Assembly: GCA_964551605.1 (NCBI GenBank)
Contig: CAZKCV010000001.1
Span: forward strand, 136,898 to 200,897
DNA: 64,000 nt
Source: an uncultured Gammaproteobacteria bacterium
GTDB taxonomy: Bacteria; Patescibacteriota; Microgenomatia; Daviesbacterales; UBA10151
Direction of reading: 5' to 3'
This document shows, one piece after another, positions 4,638-64,000 of this stretch (position 1 is the stretch's first letter; the number at the start of each line of letters is the position of its first letter). The translations under genes were made by a program, and so were the position numbers. The notes beneath the pieces were generated by a model that saw only the letters and a list, made by a program, of their open reading frames with translations, was not told the DNA's origin and did no database searches.

Positions 4638-6368
4638 ATTAAATATTTCTGCTGCTGCCCGGATAATTTCATCATCTGCTGCCAGCTCTAAATTGGCAAT
4701 ATCTTCCCTTCTTTCCGGACGGCTACCCAATGCTGTGGAAACCCTGATGCCTCTGCCTAAGACGTCGGAAAAAACCCCTTCTAAAAGATCCCTATTCTTC
4801 GGCGCCTCCAGGATTCTTTGATGAAATGAATACGGAACCTCCAGTATGACGGTGTTCTCCGTGCACTTTCTAATACTAATGGACCTAAGTAATGCTTCTA
4901 ATGAATAATTAAAAGAACGCACTGTTTCCAATACAAAAGTCCACTTCTCTTTTAACTTAAAAATATCCAAAGAATCGGATGAGACAGTTGAAAACTCTGA
5001 TTGCTCCTTATTACTATGGGAATCTTCTCCTTTCAAAACTTTCTCAACCTCTTCCTGTCTTCTTGAGCTACTAGCATCGTCATTGCGAGGAGTCCCGACT
5101 TCAGTCGTGGACGACAAAGCAATCTTGGTGGGAATTTCTTCCGGACTAGATTGCTTCCCCCGGATCAAGTCCGGGGTCGCAATGACGGAAAAGGAAGTAC
5201 AAATTTCTACCACTGCCAGCTCCAGCGGTAATGACGGAATGGAAGCGAACTTTAATTTTTCCAGAGCTTTTTGCAAAATATCCAGTGCTTTAACTAAATC
5301 CCGACCGGATAAATTCTCTGACAATATTACCATCTGCTCATACTTATCTTCAGTAAGTTGAGGTTTAACCAACTGCCCTCCTACCTTATTTTTAATCAAC
5401 ATCAAGTTTCTTAAGGTATCCATTAAGGAAAGCGTTAATTCCCGAACATCTGCTCCATGCTCCAGCTGCCCTGATACATTCAGTAAGCTTTTTGCCGAAT
5501 CTTGCCTGAAAAGGTCTTTTACTAAATCCACAAGGTCATCAAAGGGGGTGGATTGAAGATTTTCCTGTAAATATTTAATTGTAACCTTAACTTTAGCAGC
5601 ACTTACCTGATCCAATAACTTGATGCCATCCCTAAAACTCCCTTCCGCTTTCTTTACTAAAAGCTTGAAGGCTTCCGGCTCAATATCAATTTGTTCTTCC
5701 TGAATTATTTTTTCAAAGGCGGCTGAGATCTCGCCCGGAGCAGCTAACTTAAAATCCAACCTTTGTACCCTGGATAGAATCGTCTGCGGGATTTTCCCCA
5801 GTTCGGTGGTTGCCAAAATAAACAACACATGTGCAGGAGGCTCCTCCAGAGTCTTAAGCAAGGCATTAAAGGCTTCCGTGGTTAACATATGTGCCTCATC
5901 AATGATGTATACTTTTTTCTTAAGAGAACTGGGTGAAAGCTTAATTTTTTCCCTTAGCGACCTAATGTCTTCAATTCCCCGGTTGGAAGCGGCGTCAATT
6001 TCAATAAGGTCCAAATTAGATCCGTCAGTAATGGAGATACACGTTGCGCATTTGTTACATGGGTAGTCATTAGTCTTCAGTATCGCTTCGCTCTCAGCTA
6101 TCAGACTTTTTTTGTCTTTGTCTGACGACTGACGACCGGTACCAATCGAAGATTGGTGGACTGACGACTTCTTCTCACAGTTAACCATCTTAGCTAAAAT
6201 CCGGGCGGTAGAAGTTTTACCTGTTCCCCTGGGGCCGACAAAAAGATAGGCGTGGGATAATTTATTGTTTTGAAAAGATGAAAGAAGAGTTTTTTTTACA
6301 GCTTCCTGACCCATTAGTTCTTGTAAAGTTTGAGGGCGGTACTTTAGATAATAAGCTATATTTCCCAT
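4620..6368 (-). CDS. dnaX: DNA polymerase III subunit gamma/tau
   Basis: Walker A GPRGTGKT, zinc module CNKCATC, tau linker. Contains two in-frame repeat-derived insertions. Confidence 0.9.
   Translation of the reverse strand: MGNIAYYLKYRPQTLQELMGQEAVKKTLLSSFQNNKLSHAYLFVGPRGTGKTSTARILAKMVNCEKKSSVHQSSIGTGRQSSDKDKKSLIAESEAILKTNDYPCNKCATCISITDGSNLDLIEIDAASNRGIEDIRSLREKIKLSPSSLKKKVYIIDEAHMLTTEAFNALLKTLEEPPAHVLFILATTELGKIPQTILSRVQRLDFKLAAPGEISAAFEKIIQEEQIDIEPEAFKLLVKKAEGSFRDGIKLLDQVSAAKVKVTIKYLQENLQSTPFDDLVDLVKDLFRQDSAKSLLNVSGQLEHGADVRELTLSLMDTLRNLMLIKNKVGGQLVKPQLTEDKYEQMVILSENLSGRDLVKALDILQKALEKLKFASIPSLPLELAVVEICTSFSVIATPDLIRGKQSSPEEIPTKIALSSTTEVGTPRNDDASSSRRQEEVEKVLKGEDSHSNKEQSEFSTVSSDSLDIFKLKEKWTFVLETVRSFNYSLEALLRSISIRKCTENTVILEVPYSFHQRILEAPKNRDLLEGVFSDVLGRGIRVSTALGSRPERREDIANLELAADDEIIRAAAEIFNSDTVN
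5079..5186. repeat. Palindromic element, family A (gtcattgcgagg...cctcgcaatgac), in frame inside dnaX
   Basis: About 108 bp. Its 3' arm is identical to the copy at 40278-40317. Confidence 0.8.
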
Positions 6369-13640: not shown

Positions 13641-14465
13641 CTAAACAACTCTCTCTGACTCTTTTACTGTTTCCTTCTCTACCATCTCCTCTGCAGCTGC
13701 TACTTCTTCTTTTAATTCCTCCGGTAGCATATCTTCCTTTTTAGCTGCTGCTTTTTCTGCCTTTTCAGCTTCCTTACCAGCTTCCTTCTTCCCTTCGCCA
13801 TAAGCCGAAGCCACAGCCCCCACTAAAACTTTAATAGATTTTATGGCATCATCATTGCCGGGAATTGGGTAATTTATTTCCGTTGGGTCGGAGTTTGAAT
13901 CCGCGATAGCCACAACTTTAATCTTAAGCCGGTTCGCCTCCCTGATTGCAATGTTGTCTGAAACTGCATCCACCACAAACAAGGCATCAGGAAGTTTCCC
14001 TAAATCCATTACTCCGGCAAAGTCTCTTTGCAGTTTGCTCATTTTCCTCTCCAGGAGCAAATTTTCTTTTTTAGTATATTTGGATAGCTCTCCTTTTTCT
14101 TTTTGATCCAGGTACTCCTTGAGGATTTTAATATTTTTCTGCATCTGCTCAAAATTCGTTAAAAATCCGCCCATCCAGCGTGCTACTAAAAACGGGGCTT
14201 TAAGCTCTTTACAAATTTCCTCAATGATAGGCTTAGCTTGTTTTTTGGTTCCCACAAAAAGCAGGACTTTACCGGATTTTCCCATTTCATAAACAAACTC
14301 ACAAGCTTCTTTTAAGTATTTTTCAGATTGGGTTAAGTCAATAACATGAACACCTTCACGGGCGCCATAAATATAAGGCTTCATCCGGGGATGACCGCGC
14401 CTGACCTGGTGCCCAAAATGGACTCCAGCTTCTAATAATTCCTGTAAACTAGGTAATTTGTACAT
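13641..14465 (-). CDS. rpsB: 30S ribosomal protein S2 with Lys/Glu-rich C-terminal extension
   Basis: LLEAGVHFGHQ core. Start trimmed to the Met of MYKLPSLQELL. The 42-codon track extension reads through a 5' UTR motif. Confidence 0.8.
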   Translation of the reverse strand: MYKLPSLQELLEAGVHFGHQVRRGHPRMKPYIYGAREGVHVIDLTQSEKYLKEACEFVYEMGKSGKVLLFVGTKKQAKPIIEEICKELKAPFLVARWMGGFLTNFEQMQKNIKILKEYLDQKEKGELSKYTKKENLLLERKMSKLQRDFAGVMDLGKLPDALFVVDAVSDNIAIREANRLKIKVVAIADSNSDPTEINYPIPGNDDAIKSIKVLVGAVASAYGEGKKEAGKEAEKAEKAAAKKEDMLPEELKEEVAAAEEMVEKETVKESERVV

Positions 14466-20586: not shown

Positions 20587-20597
20587 GCTGATTCTAG

Positions 20598-20658
20598 AGA
20601 TTGCTTCACTACGTTCGCAATGACGTCATTGCGAGGAGCAAAGCGACGAAGCAATCTG
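20598..20658. repeat. Family A element, rearranged half-copies, intergenic between pyrG and topA
   Basis: agattgcttc...cgcaatgac followed by gtcattgcgagg...gacgaagcaatct. Confidence 0.7.
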
Positions 20659-20701: not shown

Positions 20702-22786
20702 CTACCGGATTGCAAGTATTGTTTCAGGAGCAACAACTTCTTTCTGATCTCCCTCAGGAACGACTGGCTTGGGTTTGGTCCAGCTGGCAAATTTACAGAC
20801 GGGCCAGTTTTTGCAGCCGTAGAAAGTTTTGCCCCTTTTAGTTCTTCTCACTACAATATCCCCGCCATCCTGGGGACATTTGGCGTTGACCTTTTCTTCC
20901 AAAGATTCCGTATGTTTACATTCCGGAAAACCGGAACAAGCCAGGAACTTCCCGAATCTTCCTACCCTAACAATTAATTCCTTACCGCAGTCGGGGCACT
21001 TTTTACCGGCAAATTGAACTTCCATTTTCACTTTCTGGGCTTCTTTCTTAGTCTGTTCTACCTTTTTCTCAAACGGTTGGTAAAAAGCCGCAATTGTGGG
21101 ACGCCACTGCCTTTCACCCCTGGCTATTTCATCTAATTCATCTTCTAAACTGGCCGTAAAAGTGTAATCTATAATATCAGAAAAATTTGCCATCAAAAAA
21201 TCAATTACCGTCATACCTAAAATAGTAGGTATAAATTTTCTATTTTCTTTTTCTACATAAAACCGCTCCTGAATGGTAGAAATTATCGGGGCATATGTTG
21301 AAGGCCGGCCTATACCCAGCTCTTCCAGCTTTTTAATTAAAGAGGCTTCATTATATCTAGGCGGAGGTTCGGTAAAATGCTGAGACGGTAAAAGCTGCAC
21401 CAAAGCAAGCAACTGACCCTCAGATAAAGTAGGCAAAACTTGCTTTTTTTCCTCCCCTTCTTCCTCCGCCTCTTTTCCGAAGAGCTTAAGCCAACCATCA
21501 AATCGAATCACGCTGCCGGTTGCCCGAAGTAAATATCCGTCATTGCGAGGAGTCTGCGACGAAGCAATCTCTTGATTTTCCGAGGAAGATTGCTTCGCTT
21601 CGCTCGCAATGACGTCGATGGTTGTTTGGTCCATAACCGCCTCATTCATCTGGCACGCCACAAACCTTTTCCAAATCAGATCATATAACCGTACATGGTC
21701 TTTATTGAAATTTCCCTTCCCCCTTAACCCTTCACCCTTTTCCCTTATGTCTGTTACCCGAATCGCCTCATGCGCTTCCTGGGCATTTTTTGATTTAGAC
21801 TTAAAAACCCTGGCAACAGAAGGCAAATAAGTTTTACCGATAAAATTCTCTATGTATGTTCTGACAGCCCCGATTGCCTGAGTTGATAAATTAACGGAAT
21901 CTGTTCTCATATAAGTGATCAGTCCGTGTTCATACAAGGCCTGGGCAAGCATCATGGTCTTTTTGGCTGACATTCCCAATTTATTAGCCCCGGCTTGCTG
22001 CAGGGTTGAAGTTGTAAAAGGCGGGTATGGGTAGCGGCGGACTTCTTTTTGTGTAATTTTGGAGATGTTATACTGAGCCTTTTCCAGATTTTTGACATGC
22101 CCATCCGCTTCTTCCTTATTTTTGATTTCCAGCTTTTTGCCATCTTTTTCTATTAAATTGGCAATGAAACTGTTGCCTGTTGCCTGTTGCCTGTTGCCTT
22201 CCAGCTCTACCTCAATATTCCAATATTCCTCCGGCTTAAAGGCCTTTATCTCCCTTTCCCGTTCCACTATCAGCCTTAAAGCTACTGATTGAACCCGGCC
22301 GGCAGATAAGCCCTTTTTAACCTTTTCCCATAAAAGCGGTGAGAGTTTATAACCCACTAATCTATCTAAAACCCGTCTGGCCTGCTGGGCATCAACCAGT
22401 TTAAGATCAATAGGCCGGGGGTTTTCAAATGCCTCTTTAATGGCATCCTCAGTAATTTCATGAAAAACCACCCGCTTGGTATCTTTAGAATCATTTAATA
22501 CACCGGCTAAATGCCAGGCAATTGCCTCTCCTTCCCGATCAGGGTCTGTGGCTAGCCATAAAGACTCCGCTCTCTCAGCTACCTTCTTTAATTCATTAAC
22601 CCTTTTTTTCTTATCACGGGGAATAATGTATTTAGGATCAAAATTATGCTCAACATCTATTCCAAGCTCGGATTTCGGCAAATCCCGGATATGGCCCATT
22701 GAAGCCTCAATTTGATATTTATCACCCAGAAACTTTTGAAGTGTTTTCGCCTTAGTCGGTGATTCAACAATTACTAAATTCTGCAT
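20702..22786 (-). CDS. topA: DNA topoisomerase I with C-terminal zinc ribbons
   Basis: Toprim N-terminus and multiple C4 zinc ribbons. Carries in-frame repeat insertions. Confidence 0.9.
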   Translation of the reverse strand: MQNLVIVESPTKAKTLQKFLGDKYQIEASMGHIRDLPKSELGIDVEHNFDPKYIIPRDKKKRVNELKKVAERAESLWLATDPDREGEAIAWHLAGVLNDSKDTKRVVFHEITEDAIKEAFENPRPIDLKLVDAQQARRVLDRLVGYKLSPLLWEKVKKGLSAGRVQSVALRLIVEREREIKAFKPEEYWNIEVELEGNRQQATGNSFIANLIEKDGKKLEIKNKEEADGHVKNLEKAQYNISKITQKEVRRYPYPPFTTSTLQQAGANKLGMSAKKTMMLAQALYEHGLITYMRTDSVNLSTQAIGAVRTYIENFIGKTYLPSVARVFKSKSKNAQEAHEAIRVTDIREKGEGLRGKGNFNKDHVRLYDLIWKRFVACQMNEAVMDQTTIDVIASEAKQSSSENQEIASSQTPRNDGYLLRATGSVIRFDGWLKLFGKEAEEEGEEKKQVLPTLSEGQLLALVQLLPSQHFTEPPPRYNEASLIKKLEELGIGRPSTYAPIISTIQERFYVEKENRKFIPTILGMTVIDFLMANFSDIIDYTFTASLEDELDEIARGERQWRPTIAAFYQPFEKKVEQTKKEAQKVKMEVQFAGKKCPDCGKELIVRVGRFGKFLACSGFPECKHTESLEEKVNAKCPQDGGDIVVRRTKRGKTFYGCKNWPVCKFASWTKPKPVVPEGDQKEVVAPETILAIR
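21539..21613. repeat. Family A element in frame inside topA
   Basis: About 75 bp. Encodes VIASEAKQSSSENQEIASSQTPRND. Confidence 0.8.
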
Positions 22787-33283: not shown

Positions 33284-33374
33284 GTCATTGCGAGGAACGA
33301 GTCATCGAGTGACGTGGCAATCTTGATGTGGGATTCATCCGACCTAGATTGCTTCGCTAATCGCTCGCAATGAC
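33284..33374. repeat. Family A element, intergenic between pyrD and mreB
   Basis: gtcattgcgaggaacg...agattgcttcgctaatcgctcgcaatgac. Confidence 0.8.
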
Positions 33375-36947: not shown

Positions 36948-39098
36948 ATGGTTAACATTATTCTGGATAGAATCATTCCCTACTCTTTTTATGCCCTCTT
37001 TTTCTTAACTCCCCTGGTTTGGTCATCTGCCAATCATGAGCTTTTTGAATATAACAAAATGATTTTAACTTATGGCCTCACTGTCATTATTGTAGGAGCC
37101 TGGCTACTTAAAGCGATTAACGAAAAACGATTAACGATCAAACGAACTCCCCTAGATATTCCACTTTTATTATTTTTGGGAGCCAATATCCTGTCTACTA
37201 TATTTTCAATTGATCCCCACACTTCTATTTGGGGCTATTATTCCCGTTCAAACGGCGGGCTTTTATCCATCATCTCCTACCTATTATTATATTGGGCGTT
37301 TGTTTCCAATATGGACTTTGAGAGAGTTAAACTTGCCTTAAAATTTGGCCTGACTTCCGGTTTTATTATTTCCCTGTGGGCAATTTTTGAACACTTTGGA
37401 GTTTCTCCGTCCTGTGTAATTTTAAGGGGGGAGTTTAATGCTTCCTGCTGGATACAGGATGTCCAGGCCCGGGTTTTTGCCACTTTAGGCCAACCCAACT
37501 GGCTGGCAGCCTATTTGGCTATGTTAATTTTCCCCACTTTGTATTTTGCTTTAACTGCTTCCCATAAACTATACGCTATACGCTATACGCTTATCGCTAT
37601 TATCTTCTACCTGGCTTTTACCTTTACTTATTCCCGGGGACCCACACTGGGACTGATTGGAGGAATGGCGGTATTTATTATTGGCTACCTCTTCTGGCAT
37701 CCTGAGGGCAAAGCCCGAAGGATCTCTGCTCTACGAAGTACTTATTTTGTAACATTTATTTCAGACCCTCACATTCGTGAGAGATTCTTCACTACGTTCA
37801 GAATGACAAAGCTAGGAGGTATTTTAATCTCTTTCTTAATAATCAACCTCCTCTTTGGCTCAGCCTTAACTTCATTTAGATTAATTTCCAAATTTGCTGC
37901 CCCGGCCAGGCCCGGGATAGCTCTCCCAACCTCAAGCGGCACCCAACTGGAGAACGGCGGTACCGAATCCGGTCAAATCCGATTTATTGTCTGGAAAGGT
38001 GCCCTGGAAATATTTAAACATTACCCGCTTTTCGGCTCAGGAGTGGAAACCTTTGCCTATGCCTATTACCAGTACCGGCCGCCGGAACATAATCTAACCT
38101 CTGAATGGGATTTTCTTTACAACAAAGCGCATAATGAATATCTGAACTACCTGGCTACCACCGGAATTGTCGGCTTTGGGACTTATTTGCTGGTGATTGG
38201 AACATTCATTTATTGGTGTATTAAAAAAATTTCTAAATCCGAATTACTAATTTCTAATCAAATCCCAAATCCTAAACCCCAATTAGGTCAATTAGAAATT
38301 AGATCAATTAGAAATTTAGTTCTTGCACTCCTTGCTGCCTATATCTCCTACTTAATCTATAACTTCTTTCTTTTCTCCGTTGTCATTATTGCCGTCTTTT
38401 TCTATCTACTTCCGGCCCTGGCCTTTGTTGCTGCAAATTCCACTATACCCTATACCCTATACCCTATACCCTACCTCTACCGGAGACCACTATATACCCG
38501 GGTAGCTAAAGGTCTGGTGATTTTTTCCATCATCTATCTTCTATATTCTATATTCCAGCTTTGGTATGCCGATACTTTATTTGCCAAAGGTGAAAAAGCT
38601 ACTGATGCCGGTAGACTGAGTAAAGCCTATGAGTTTTTAACCAGAGCCTCGGATATTAACAGGGCTGAACCGCTTTATCAATCAGAACTGGGTTTTGTAC
38701 AGGCACAGGCAGCTGCGGCTTTAAAAGATACTGATGCTTCCGCATCCGCCGATTTTAAGGACGATGCGGTTTCCCTAACTGAAAATGTCTTAGAAAAAAG
38801 TCCCCAAAATATTTCATTCTACCGGACAGCAGTCAGGACCTATTTTGAGCTTTCCCTGACAGACAATGCCTTCATCGATAAAACCCTGCAAACACTGGAT
38901 CAAAGCATAAAACTGGCTCCCACTGATCCTAAACTTTATTATAATAAAGCCTTAATTCTTGAAAGCATCGGCAAAAAAGAAGAACAAATTAGAGCTTTAG
39001 AAAAAGCCCTACAGTTAAAACCAAATTATCTGGAAGCACTGGCTCTTTTAAAAGAGGCTACCGGATCAGCCCGCCTGCCGGACGGGCAGGCTAAATAA
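36948..39098 (+). CDS. O-antigen ligase (Wzy_C)-domain polytopic membrane protein with C-terminal TPR repeats (PglL/WaaL-like)
   Basis: SRGPTLG and LFGSGVETF...HNEYLNYLATTGIVGF motifs, at least 10 TM helices, TPR-like tail. Confidence 0.7.
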   Translation: MVNIILDRIIPYSFYALFFLTPLVWSSANHELFEYNKMILTYGLTVIIVGAWLLKAINEKRLTIKRTPLDIPLLLFLGANILSTIFSIDPHTSIWGYYSRSNGGLLSIISYLLLYWAFVSNMDFERVKLALKFGLTSGFIISLWAIFEHFGVSPSCVILRGEFNASCWIQDVQARVFATLGQPNWLAAYLAMLIFPTLYFALTASHKLYAIRYTLIAIIFYLAFTFTYSRGPTLGLIGGMAVFIIGYLFWHPEGKARRISALRSTYFVTFISDPHIRERFFTTFRMTKLGGILISFLIINLLFGSALTSFRLISKFAAPARPGIALPTSSGTQLENGGTESGQIRFIVWKGALEIFKHYPLFGSGVETFAYAYYQYRPPEHNLTSEWDFLYNKAHNEYLNYLATTGIVGFGTYLLVIGTFIYWCIKKISKSELLISNQIPNPKPQLGQLEIRSIRNLVLALLAAYISYLIYNFFLFSVVIIAVFFYLLPALAFVAANSTIPYTLYPIPYLYRRPLYTRVAKGLVIFSIIYLLYSIFQLWYADTLFAKGEKATDAGRLSKAYEFLTRASDINRAEPLYQSELGFVQAQAAAALKDTDASASADFKDDAVSLTENVLEKSPQNISFYRTAVRTYFELSLTDNAFIDKTLQTLDQSIKLAPTDPKLYYNKALILESIGKKEEQIRALEKALQLKPNYLEALALLKEATGSARLPDGQAK

Positions 39099-40223: not shown

Positions 40224-40317
40224 GTCATTGCGAGGAACGAAGTGACGAAGCAATCTTGGTAGTGATTAAACATTAACTAGATTGCTTCCCCCGGATCAAG
40301 TCCGGGGTCGCAATGAC
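40224..40317. repeat. Family A element, intergenic between def and fmt
   Basis: gtcattgcgaggaacgaagtgacgaagcaatct...agattgcttcccccggatcaagtccggggtcgcaatgac. Confidence 0.8.
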
Positions 40318-47946: not shown

Positions 47947-47980
47947 TGTCATTCTGAGCGTAACGAAGAATCTCAAGATT
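47947..47980. repeat. Family B element (partial) upstream of the HTH/endonuclease-like gene
   Basis: gtcattctgagcgtaacgaagaatctcaagatt. Confidence 0.5.
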
Positions 47981-52916: not shown

Positions 52917-52984
52917 GTCATTCTGAGCGAAGCGAAGAATATAACTTAATGATTATATCCTTCGGCTAATCGCCTCAGGATGAC
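52917..52984. repeat. Family B palindromic element (gtcattctgagcgaagcgaagaat ... cgcctcaggatgac) at the GH1/EamA junction
   Basis: Imperfect terminal inverted repeat gtcattctgagcg / cgcctcaggatgac. A related copy lies at 47947-47980. Confidence 0.6.
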
Positions 52985-61689: not shown

Positions 61690-61860
61690 TAAAGTAACTT
61701 TCTTCTGTCATCCCCCGATTAAATCGGGGGATCCATACAAATAATTGGTATAGATTCCTGCTTTCGCAGGAATGACAACGGAATTTTTCATTATTGCAAT
61801 TATACTACTACCTTTGTTATACTTGATACGTTCATGTAAACTGAACGTATCTTGACAAAT

Positions 61861-61887
61861 GGGTCTAAATATAGACCCTTTTTTTAT
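61861..61887 (+). terminator. Hairpin gggtcta-aata-tagaccc followed by T7 run, immediately 5' of the secE start
   Basis: Perfect 7-bp stem plus TTTTTTT. Could be a terminator or attenuator-like element ahead of secE-nusG-rplKA. Confidence 0.35.
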
Positions 61888-62080
61888 GCCTAATATATTT
61901 GGATTTCTAAATGAAGTTAAAGAAGAATTAGCTAAGGTAACCTGGCCCAGCCGGGAAGAAACTGTCCGTTATACGGTTCTGGTTATCCTGGTCGCGGCTG
62001 TGGTTGGTTTGTTCTTAGGTGGCCTGGATTATATCCTAACCAGCATTACCACCTTTATAATAGGAAACTATGGACGATAA
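61886..62080 (+). CDS. secE: Preprotein translocase subunit SecE
   Basis: 64 aa. TWPSREETVRYTVLVILVAAVVGLFLGGLDYIL single TM. Start trimmed to MPNIFG. Confidence 0.8.
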   Translation: MPNIFGFLNEVKEELAKVTWPSREETVRYTVLVILVAAVVGLFLGGLDYILTSITTFIIGNYGR

Positions 62081-62987
62081 AAATCAAAAAACAGAAGAAA
62101 AAGTTTCAGAAGTAACAGACGCTTCTGAGGAACCTGTTGTAGAAGAAACCACTGAATCAAATCAGCCGGAAGAGGCTTCCTCTCCTGTCATTGCGAGTGA
62201 AACCGAAGGTGAAACGAAGCAATCTTCCACGGATGAAGAAGATCGCCACGTCGTCCCGCAAAGCGGGACTCCTCGCGATGACGAAGAAATAAACAAAGAC
62301 GAAGCCGTAGTAGAAGAATCTACAAAAGAACCTGAAGCGCAAGTAAACGAACCAGGTGAGACTCCAGCTGCCGAAGAACCAACTACATCCGATGAGCCTA
62401 CTCCAGCCACCCACGAGTCGACTGAACCACAAGAATCCGCCTCCCCTACCAAAAATGATAATCCTAATGCCAAATGGTATGTTGTTCATACCTATTCCGG
62501 CCATGAAAACAAGGTGGCCCATACCTTAAAACAGCGGGTAGAATCCGAGCATCTGGAAGAGAAAATCCTGGAAATCCTGGTTCCCATGCAGGATAAAATT
62601 GAAATCAAAGGCGGCAAAAAGGTTAATGTCAAGGAAAAAATCTTCCCCGGCTATATTTTGGTCAAGATGGTCCTGGATGATATCTCCTGGCTGGTTGTCA
62701 GGACTACCCAGGGAGTAACTGCTTTTGTCGGTATAGGCAATAAACCCACTCCAATTTCTGAGGCTGAAGTACAAACTATTGTTAAATTTACCCAAACAGA
62801 AGCTCCAATGTACAAACAAGTGTTTGCCGTATCTGATGCGGTTAAAATCGTAGACGGCCCGTTTGCTGATTTTATTGGTAAAATCGACAGTGTTGATGAA
62901 GAAAAAGGTAAAGTCCGGGTCCTGGTTTCCATCTTTGGTAGGGAAACCCCGGTTGAGTTGGACTTTTTGCAAGTTCAGAAATTATAA
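62070..62987 (+). CDS. nusG: Transcription antiterminator NusG with ~125-aa acidic N-terminal extension
   Basis: NGN domain KWYVVHTYSGHENKV and KOW domain KIVDGPFADFIGKI. The extension contains a palindromic repeat in frame. Confidence 0.85.
   Translation: MDDKNQKTEEKVSEVTDASEEPVVEETTESNQPEEASSPVIASETEGETKQSSTDEEDRHVVPQSGTPRDDEEINKDEAVVEESTKEPEAQVNEPGETPAAEEPTTSDEPTPATHESTEPQESASPTKNDNPNAKWYVVHTYSGHENKVAHTLKQRVESEHLEEKILEILVPMQDKIEIKGGKKVNVKEKIFPGYILVKMVLDDISWLVVRTTQGVTAFVGIGNKPTPISEAEVQTIVKFTQTEAPMYKQVFAVSDAVKIVDGPFADFIGKIDSVDEEKGKVRVLVSIFGRETPVELDFLQVQKL
62187..62282. repeat. Family A element in frame in the nusG N-terminal extension
   Basis: About 96 bp. Encodes VIASETEGETKQSS...SGTPRDDEE. 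Confidence 0.75.
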
Positions 62988-63026
62988 GTAACCTAAGTCA
63001 CTTGAGTTACTTAAGAAACTTAAACT

Positions 63027-63452
63027 ATGGCTAAAAAGGTTAAAACATTGATTAAATTAAATATTCCGGCCGGTGAGGCAACTCCGGCTCCCCCGGTTGG
63101 CCCGGCCTTAGGCCAACACGGCTTACCGATCATGGAATTTGTCAAAGCTTACAATGACAAAACTCAGGATAAAAAAGGCAATATTTTACCGGTAGTGATT
63201 ACGGTTTATGAAGACCGGACTTTTTCATTTTTTACTAAAGAGCCGCCGGTGGCGGAAATGATTAAAAAAACTCTAAGCTTAGAAAAAGGTTCCGGCACAG
63301 CCATGAAACAGCCGGTTGGCACTTTATCTTTAGCTCAAGTAAAACAGATAGCAGAAGCCAAACTACCGGATTTGAACACAAAAGATGTTCAGGCTGCCAT
63401 GAAAATTGTCGAAGGCACTGCCAAAAGTATGGGAGTGAAAATTAGTGGGTAG
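63027..63452 (+). CDS. rplK: 50S ribosomal protein L11
   Basis: [23 protein letters not shown] motif. Confidence 0.9.
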
Positions 63453-63508
63453 GTTTTAGGTGATAGGTTATAGATTAAAACTATAAGCTACAACCAAAGG
63501 GAGCACAA

Positions 63509-64000
63509 ATGGGACGACCAAGATTAAAAATTATTGATGATGCACAGGAAGAAACTGAAGAGAAGCTTTCCAAAAAGAAAGCTAAAAAGCCGGAAATAAA
63601 GACTGAAGCATCAATTCCAGACGTCATTGCGAGCGACGCCGAAGGCGGAACGAAGCAATCCAACTCGGAAGAAACTCCCACCCAGATTGCTTCGTCGCAG
63701 ACTCCTCGCAATGACAAAGAGAAGAAAGCCCGAAAACCCGGCAAAGCCAAGCCCCGATCCAAAAAGTATCAAGAAGTTGTCAAAGACCTGGACAAAACCA
63801 AGGCTTATCCCCTTTCCGAAGCAGTTGAGCTGGTTAAGAAACTTTCCTACTCTAAATTTGATGGTAGTCTGGAAGCCCATGTCAACACTGCACAAACCGG
63901 AATCCGTGGTTTAGTCTCCTTGCCCTATGCTGCCGGTAGGAAACTGCGCATCTTGGCTTTTGGCAAAGGAGCGGAAACTTCAGGGGCTGACACGGTTGGT
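63509..64000 (+). CDS. rplA: 50S ribosomal protein L1 (partial at 3' end, with ~80-aa Lys-rich N-terminal extension)
   Basis: Core SKKYQEVVKDLDKTKAYPLSEAVELVKK...LPYAAGRKLRILAFGKG. Runs off the window. Not in the ORF track because no stop codon is reached. Confidence 0.8.
   Translation, partial: MGRPRLKIIDDAQEETEEKLSKKKAKKPEIKTEASIPDVIASDAEGGTKQSNSEETPTQIASSQTPRNDKEKKARKPGKAKPRSKKYQEVVKDLDKTKAYPLSEAVELVKKLSYSKFDGSLEAHVNTAQTGIRGLVSLPYAAGRKLRILAFGKGAETSGADTVG
63623..63715. repeat. Family A element in frame in the rplA N-terminal extension
   Basis: Encodes VIASDAEGGTKQSNSEETPTQIASSQTPRND. Confidence 0.75.

Follow-up and report, generated by a model that had tools for sequence, protein, structure and literature searches.

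The transcription factor NusG and the ribosomal protein L1 encoded near the end of a 64,000-nt stretch of bacterial DNA (the window, analysed at full length and the reference for all coordinates; Table 1) each carry a long N-terminal extension, or tail, that contains one copy of a multi-copy palindromic element, here called family A. We think it very probable that both tails are genuine translated regions, predicted to be disordered, and that the palindromic element was inserted into the variable spacer of each and kept there by a filter on reading frame and length. The closest NusG matches come from Candidatus Daviesbacteria (Microgenomates, candidate phyla radiation [CPR]), and the L1 homologs give the same group. 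In NusG of the window a KOW domain (Pfam PF00467, E 1e-7) comes after the NGN domain (PF02357, E 2e-28); 134 residues precede the KWYVVHTY motif, the Pfam NusG domain begins at residue 135, and solved NusG structures in the PDB align only from residue 129-135 on. The extension reported in a first-pass annotation of this DNA is therefore real, but it counts 134 residues by Pfam and PDB instead of about 125. In L1, 83-84 residues with 18% Lys stand ahead of SKKYQEV, which agrees with the roughly 80 extra Lys-rich residues noted before.

The ATG at 62070 is the sole in-frame start codon of the NusG tail when ATG, GTG and TTG are considered, and the next in-frame starts (a GTG at codon 149 and an ATG at codon 173) both lie within the NGN domain. 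L1 starts at the ATG at 63509, which has a Shine-Dalgarno sequence (AAAGGGAG) 5 nt upstream and is the only in-frame start codon before the core. Because neither tail contains another in-frame start, a complete core cannot be made without the tail, and the alternative downstream starts that the first-pass annotation had considered do not allow the extensions to be skipped. The frame of the nusG tail stays open in 36 of 20,000 shuffles (0.18%) and that of the rplA tail in 348 of 20,000 (1.7%), and most of the remaining five frames across both tails contain stops. The nusG start overlaps the secE stop by 11 nt, and the identical overlap occurs in the related loci L203, L205, L206 and L207. Alignment with relatives, as had been proposed, revealed conserved tail ends and variable middles in both proteins: NusG tails (118 homologs) begin with MDD(N/K) and end in a (K/S)DNPNA-KWYVV junction, and L1 tails (111 homologs) begin with MG(R/K)(P/T)K(I/V)K.IDDS (MGRPKIKIIDDS) and end in KPGKAKPR-SKKY. 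The sole starts, the conserved N-terminal motifs and the maintenance of frame across different lengths are sequence-level grounds for taking both tails as genuine regions that would have to be translated.

The composition of the NusG tail (E 22%, T 12%, S 10%, P 10%, net charge -31, zero aromatics) bears out its earlier description as rich in E, S, T and P, and a charge-hydropathy plot, the disorder prediction that had been called for, places both tails on the disordered side and both cores on the folded side. In an AlphaFold2 (AF2) model of full-length P0121, an L1 homolog whose element occupies the corresponding site, the core is predicted with a predicted local distance difference test score (pLDDT) of 78-92, and tail residues 9-70 score below 50 and are modelled without secondary structure. 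Among the 118 homologs the NusG tail ranges from 10 to 154 aa in length and keeps its acidic composition despite sequence turnover. NusG cores that are 85-90% identical to that of the window (P0117, P0041 and P0047) bear tails of 10-17 aa, and the presence of such short tails on cores this similar argues that the long NusG tail would be dispensable.

The L1 tail belongs to a known trait: Tsurumaki et al. 2022 (PMC9297842) describe a 40-130 aa N-terminal insertion without Pfam match in Microgenomates uL1; they also relate the atypical uL1 to the loss of bL9 and of 23S helix 78 and warn that uL1 start codons were not verified. The 84-aa tail of the window L1 is an instance of this Microgenomates/CPR trait, sharing with the published insertion its length range and its lack of a Pfam match, and we add conserved end motifs, embedded repeats and support for the start, which the available text does not report. 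Across the 111 homologs the L1 tail spans 40-82 aa (5th-95th percentile; maximum 108 aa), and the minimal tails of about 40 aa keep both conserved ends; L1 of non-CPR loci has just 3-4 residues before GKKY. An extra conserved and apparently helical module, (G)RQDELVEKLKAELG, is present in 18 of the 111 tails (e.g. P0147, P0171 and P0186); it is not repeat-like and is absent from the window L1.

The family-A element is delimited by a terminal 11-mer, GTCATTGCGAG, that occurs 14 times in the window versus 0.44 times expected and defines seven copies, six full and one permuted. The extensions had been described as built partly from a repeat element, with one family-A element in frame in each, and we indeed find one DNA copy in frame in both the nusG and the rplA tail. 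The terminal inverted repeat is 11-12 nt long, (Y)GTCATTGCGAG...CTCGCAATGAC(R), and the palindrome extends by one base only (Y...R). The six full copies have an 11-bp outer stem, a 10-bp inner stem and variable side hairpins, and RNA folding gives a minimum free energy (MFE) of -33 to -54 kcal/mol (z -4.0 to -8.6); the permuted copy folds more weakly (-24.5 kcal/mol, z -3.7). The repeating module is a half-unit hairpin, GTCAT-NNN-GAG ... GAA-N'N'N'-ATCT, and the element is an inverted pair of such half-units. In a scan of the window and 30 CPR loci that did not require complementarity, the partner triplets were complementary in 37 of 41 half-units and of four kinds (TGC, CCT, TCT and TCC). The nusG copy is chimeric, its right half being the CGC variant (ATCGC/GCGAT). 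Direct duplications of 2-5 nt flanking 131 copies were at chance level, so that no target-site duplication is detected, and Rfam has no family for the element at the gathering threshold or at E<=1.

Within genes, the element is subject to a tight constraint on length and frame. Among 15 coding copies verified at the DNA level (four in the window, two in Curtissbacteria L005 and nine in L201-L208), all have lengths divisible by three, even though nine different lengths occur (75, 84, 90, 93, 96, 99, 105, 108 and 117 nt), and all are read stop-free in the same one of the six frames, VIAS(E)...KQS...IA...PRND. This frame has the fewest hydrophobic residues of the six (10-22%) and a mild negative charge; each of the others is interrupted by stops, strongly basic (+9 or +10) or hydrophobic. 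As judged from domain layout and alignment, the insertion sites are permissive positions. Besides both N-terminal tails they comprise the linker of DnaX that joins domain III to the C-terminal domain (Pfam DNA_pol3_gamma3, 279-400, and DnaX_C, 471-550) and, in TopA, a 25-residue insert between TVGAGD and FRLKARG that aligns to a 21-residue gap of E. coli TopA (4rul_A). Four genomes (the window, L005, L204 and L206) have the element in both nusG and rplA, and the two L005 copies match at 88 of 90 nt. Tryptic digestion would be expected to give element peptides exclusive to the tails (QSSTDEEDR and HVVPQSGTPR for NusG, QSNSEETPTQIASSQTPR for L1). The 31-aa L1 element peptide has no match among 1.84 billion representative proteins, and a profile of the element peptide (entered as dimer) gave just 3 matches at E<=0.01 among 5.8 billion proteins.

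Beyond these genomes, a metagenome scan covering at least 120 loci recovered at least 127 full copies, 92 of them outside long open reading frames (ORFs) among the matches listed; the lengths of the latter are uniform modulo three (25 of 92 divisible by three). The superfamily is therefore widespread, normally intergenic and not CPR-specific among the matches listed. The metagenome copies lying in long ORFs were rejected as coding copies, as their lengths are random modulo three and their readings hydrophobic; the ORFs were taken to be spurious. One metagenome contig holds a tandem array (L124:3908-4975) in which a 121-nt unit, made up of the element right half, a spacer and the left half, recurs 8.8 times at 97% identity.

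The suggestion that selfish DNA had seeded the extensions is not supported in that form. Element-derived residues are a minority of each tail (32 of 134 in NusG, 24%; 31 of 84 in L1, 37%), and the remaining tail DNA has no repeat match in the window or in about 200 loci (blastn). Since relatives without the element still have tails and short tails exist, the element entered pre-existing tails. At least six other repeat-family-like peptides occupy the same spacer sites across Daviesbacteria, including VIPS..DPS..QDD (found as DNA in L001 with the same GTCAT architecture), SEVERT..GAKQT..ASRPDEP, LDDGNLKLDEEVGSSKLEDQTSNIQ..PTS, IDDGKIEDSTLKMEGG..PSSTV, VVMDDSA..ESSKK and EGRLPPNAAS. Tails with a recognised motif are longer (median 86 versus 61 aa in NusG, 71 versus 53 aa in L1). 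In L1, every repeat family stops a few residues short of KPGKAKPR, pointing to one site that is permissive or preferred.

To compare the element with its surroundings, we used nine NusG genes that have it at the same site (36 pairs). Mean pairwise peptide identity is 56% in the element, 33-34% in the flanking tail and 88% in the core. At third codon positions, element identity exceeds that of the flanks (about 0.42) in 35 of 36 pairs, the exception being L207/L206, whose flanks are near-identical. L207 is a mosaic, with tail flanks like those of L206 and an element and core start like those of the window, which suggests recombination or element replacement, possibly chimeric assembly; chimeric metagenome contigs could contribute to the mosaic pattern. 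Together, conservation and discordance imply nucleotide-level constraint on the palindrome, gene conversion or replacement at a fixed site.

On the reading we favour, the L1 tail would be a lineage-wide CPR/Microgenomates feature consisting of a conserved motif, a variable spacer and the conserved KPGKAKPR junction, and the NusG tail would be a hypervariable acidic spacer that runs from the MDD start, overlapping the secE stop, to DNPNA-KWYVV. A multi-copy inverted pair of hairpin units resembling repetitive extragenic palindromic (REP) sequences would insert into the variable spacer of each tail and survive in the gene only with a length that is a multiple of three and a reading in the one frame that is hydrophilic and free of stops (Val-Ile-Ala-Ser ... 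Lys-Gln-Ser ... Pro-Arg-Asn-Asp); the copies in TopA and in the linker of DnaX would have passed the same filter. The data above demonstrate that the tails need to be translated, that frame and length are filtered, that the element has a hairpin architecture and is conserved at the nucleotide level, and that it recurs at the same sites in relatives; the element would spread as selfish DNA, its peptide tolerated and not required, and the tails may act as permissive sinks that lengthen through such insertions.

Several points weigh against this reading. Third-codon-position identity in the element (0.57-0.91) exceeds that in the NusG core (0.44-0.68) in 36 of 36 pairs, an excess that a purely tolerated, decaying insert would not predict. 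Disorder of the NusG tail is called mainly from composition, since the AF2 model, which predicts residues 1-135 without secondary structure, is weak overall (mean pLDDT 49.5), is too poor to tell tail from core and adds little. The repeat-family counts come from regular expressions on peptides, and they are approximate and hold at the peptide level only. Finally, about 0.9 Mb of loci revealed no transposase or REP-associated tyrosine transposase (RAYT) linked to the element, and with neither a linked transposase nor a target-site duplication, mobility is deduced from copy number, presence or absence at given sites and near-identical copies.

The third-position excess, together with a synonymous divergence (dS) between the window and L207 of 0.21 in the element and 1.19 in the core, would be accounted for if the embedded hairpin itself were functional, for example in mRNA processing or stability, as a pause or as a protein-binding site in the secE-nusG-rplKA operon, with the peptide as by-product. 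The presence of the element in nusG and rplA of the same four genomes and its very stable predicted fold also fit such a role. Many close relatives, however, have no element or a different repeat family at these sites, the element is mostly intergenic in metagenomes (among the matches listed) and has no Rfam match, gene conversion or recent replacement would explain the conservation as well, and element and flanks are discordant in their similarities among the window, L207 and L206; we consider a function of the hairpin unlikely. We give a similarly low chance to the tails, element peptide included, being adaptive modules that tune contacts to RNA polymerase or the ribosome and offset CPR ribosome reductions: the conserved ends, together with a minimal tail of about 40 aa that almost no L1 homolog lacks, suggest a basal function of the L1 tail, the link of uL1 to the lost helix and bL9 in PMC9297842 is in keeping with compensation, and the NusG tail stays acidic as its sequence turns over, but the 10-17 aa tails on NusG cores 85-90% identical, middle segments only about 33% identical and an element in only about 9% of homologs speak against it. 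It is also improbable, though worth stating, that REP-like hairpins are kept at the nucleotide level inside essential CPR genes for a cis function in the secE-nusG-rplKA transcript or DNA and that their recurrent capture would then be a main route by which disordered core-protein tails originate and turn over.

Two further explanations have very little to commend them. Untranslated leaders or gene-calling artefacts, with the true starts at the cores, might be suspected because gene callers favour the longest ORF and because of the unverified uL1 start codons mentioned in PMC9297842, but the absence of in-frame starts before the cores, the rarity of open frames among the shuffles, the element lengths in multiples of three and the position of MDD and MGRPKIKIIDDS exactly at the ORF starts in relatives contradict them. 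Start signals at the cores and stop codons in sister genomes, named in the first-pass annotation as signs of a leader, were both sought and neither was found, and no promoter-like or Rfam feature within the tails points to another reading; we reject the leader as most improbable. It is just as hard to credit that the in-gene elements are assembly artefacts or that they are excised or skipped, be it ahead of translation or in its course. Every sequence used comes from a metagenome assembly and the mosaic of the window, L207 and L206 may partly reflect chimeric contigs, but independent assemblies (NCBI, ENA and Logan) built from different samples agree on the insertion site, which rejects misassembly, and splicing or translational bypassing is rejected because neither would force lengths to be multiples of three, keep the reading free of stops or hold it to a single frame.

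Among known systems, family A most resembles in behaviour the Rickettsia palindromic elements (RPEs), which are multi-copy, lie in frame in unrelated and often essential genes and are translated as a conserved hydrophilic peptide where the host protein tolerates it, as described by Ogata et al. 2000 and 2002 (cited after PMC10969869). Family A has in common with them the multi-copy palindromes, the in-frame location in unrelated genes and the hydrophilic peptide at tolerated positions; it differs in being shorter (75-117 nt versus the about 150 bp given there), in its host phylum (CPR/Microgenomates), and in being an inverted pair of REP-like hairpins whose superfamily, among the matches listed, is mostly intergenic outside CPR. 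Given the differences in length and host, membership in the RPE families proper is unlikely; by analogy, family A would fall into an RPE-like functional class (multi-copy palindrome, in frame, one peptide frame, permissive sites).

The conserved 5' motif of classical REPs is GTAG. Family A shares with REPs and REPINs (inverted REP doublets; PMC3116915, PMC3337134) the short imperfect-palindrome hairpin, a conserved 5' motif (here GTCAT), inverted and chimeric doublets and the lack of target-site duplication. It differs in that no RAYT adjoins it or is flanked by it in the about 0.9 Mb, and in that classical REPs are extragenic whereas four of the seven window copies lie inside genes and would have to be translated. 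A RAYT search with E. coli RayT as query gave one weak match, a Pfam-confirmed Y1_Tnp ORF in L191 that lies at a distance of 1.7 kb from an element and has a different repeat around it. This IS200-like gene (L191:2330-3060) has its own repeat, CTCCGGGAGCCACACATACCAAAAATAAATTTAAAATC..., on both sides, and the two look like a candidate REP-RAYT pair with no relation to family A. [quoted passage not shown] Taking these likenesses together, family A would function like RPEs and be built like a REPIN, as a late passenger in older tails.

Extra residues before the NGN domain are also known from Mycobacterium tuberculosis NusG (Actinobacteria, 238 aa; PDB 8eos and 8e74), and residue 112 of the window NusG aligns to residue 26 of that chain. 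The window tail is much longer, strongly acidic, hypervariable within one candidate phylum and repeat-bearing. Within the library covered, literature searches returned no report of coding palindromes in CPR, and a search with the terminal sequence returned primers only.

The unusual lengths of core CPR proteins stem in part from repeat DNA that would be read through by the ribosome, and gene calling and protein-length comparisons in CPR need to allow for translated repeats. The start-codon caveat attached to the uL1 N-terminal region in PMC9297842 would be settled, and the coding-palindrome phenomenon of Rickettsia is extended to very different reduced-genome bacteria. The tails are a clean natural example of how insertion under a frame and hydropathy filter can enlarge bacterial disordered regions, and the synonymous-site excess of the element raises the testable question of selection on nucleic-acid structure inside essential ORFs.

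Table 1. Positions of genes, tails and repeat copies in the window.
Feature	Position	Strand	Remarks
secE	61859-62080	+	Pfam SecE, E 3e-19
nusG	62070-62987	+	305 aa; Pfam NusG 135-237, KOW 255-286
NusG acidic N-terminal tail	62070-62471	+	134 codons, predicted disordered
Family-A element in nusG	62187-62282	+	96 nt, 32 codons, read VIASETEGETKQSSTDEEDRHVVPQSGTPRDD; MFE -40.4 kcal/mol, z -5.2
rplK (L11)	63027-63452	+	Pfam Ribosomal_L11_N and Ribosomal_L11
rplA (L1), 5' part	63509-64000	+	Gene continues past window end; homologs carry PF00687
L1 Lys-rich tail	63509-63760	+	Conserved MGRPRLKIIDDA start, variable middle, conserved KPGKAKPR end
Family-A element in rplA	63623-63715	+	93 nt, 31 codons, read VIASDAEGGTKQSNSEETPTQIASSQTPRND; MFE -40.1 kcal/mol, z -5.9
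Family-A element in topA	21539-21613	-	75 nt, in frame, read VIASEAKQSSSENQEIASSQTPRND
Family-A element in dnaX linker	5079-5186	-	108 nt, in frame, VIATPDLIRGKQSS...GTPRND; MFE -54.3 kcal/mol, z -7.4
Intergenic family-A copy	33284-33374	.	91 nt, stops in all six frames
Intergenic family-A copy	40224-40317	.	94 nt, stops in all six frames
Permuted family-A copy (right half then left half)	20590-20657	.	68 nt, topA-pyrG spacer, just upstream of pyrG ATG
S2 KE-rich C-terminal tail	13641-13799	-	About 40-50 aa, no repeat element

The first-pass annotation had also mentioned a KE-rich C-terminal tail of about 70 aa on ribosomal protein S2. The S2 gene (13641-14465, minus strand) is real and the tail, taken as the part beyond the alignment to E. 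coli S2, is present, but it is shorter than stated (Table 1). Since solved S2 proteins of 269-283 aa exist, the S2 tail of the window looks ordinary.

Other GTCAT-hairpin families with covarying stem triplets are found in the window at 47948-47971 (TCT), 52917-52984 (a chimeric TCT+CCT pair) and 61707-61776 (a CCC+TCC pair just upstream of secE), and all appear intergenic. The minimal half-units at 21589-21613 and 52917-52940 contain GCGAAGC, a sequence that forms an unusually stable DNA mini-hairpin, which hints by analogy that the structure may matter in single-stranded DNA. A family-A-like copy of 84 nt with the ATCGC variant on the left (L201:155-238, in a Daviesbacteria genome) is located at the 5' end of a penicillin-binding-protein gene upstream of secE.

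When compared with E. coli DnaX, DnaX of the window shows a second insertion that is hydrophilic and about 31 aa long (KKSSVHQSSIGTGRQSSDKDKKSLIAESEAILKTND, residues 67-101, encoded at 6068-6170 on the minus strand), which sits between NCE and a Cys-rich motif. Its DNA contains the short palindromes CCAATCTTCGATTGG and TCAGAC..GTCTGA, a GCGAAGC motif and an AATGAC end, and it may be a decayed repeat. A lone TCT-type half-unit, AGATTCTTCACTACGTTCAGAATGAC, lies at 37784-37807 within the ORF 36948-39098, just before a hydrophobic segment; its terminal AATGAC gives an in-frame ATG (MTKLGGILISF...), and judging from the sequence this ORF may be two genes, the second with a start codon donated by the repeat.

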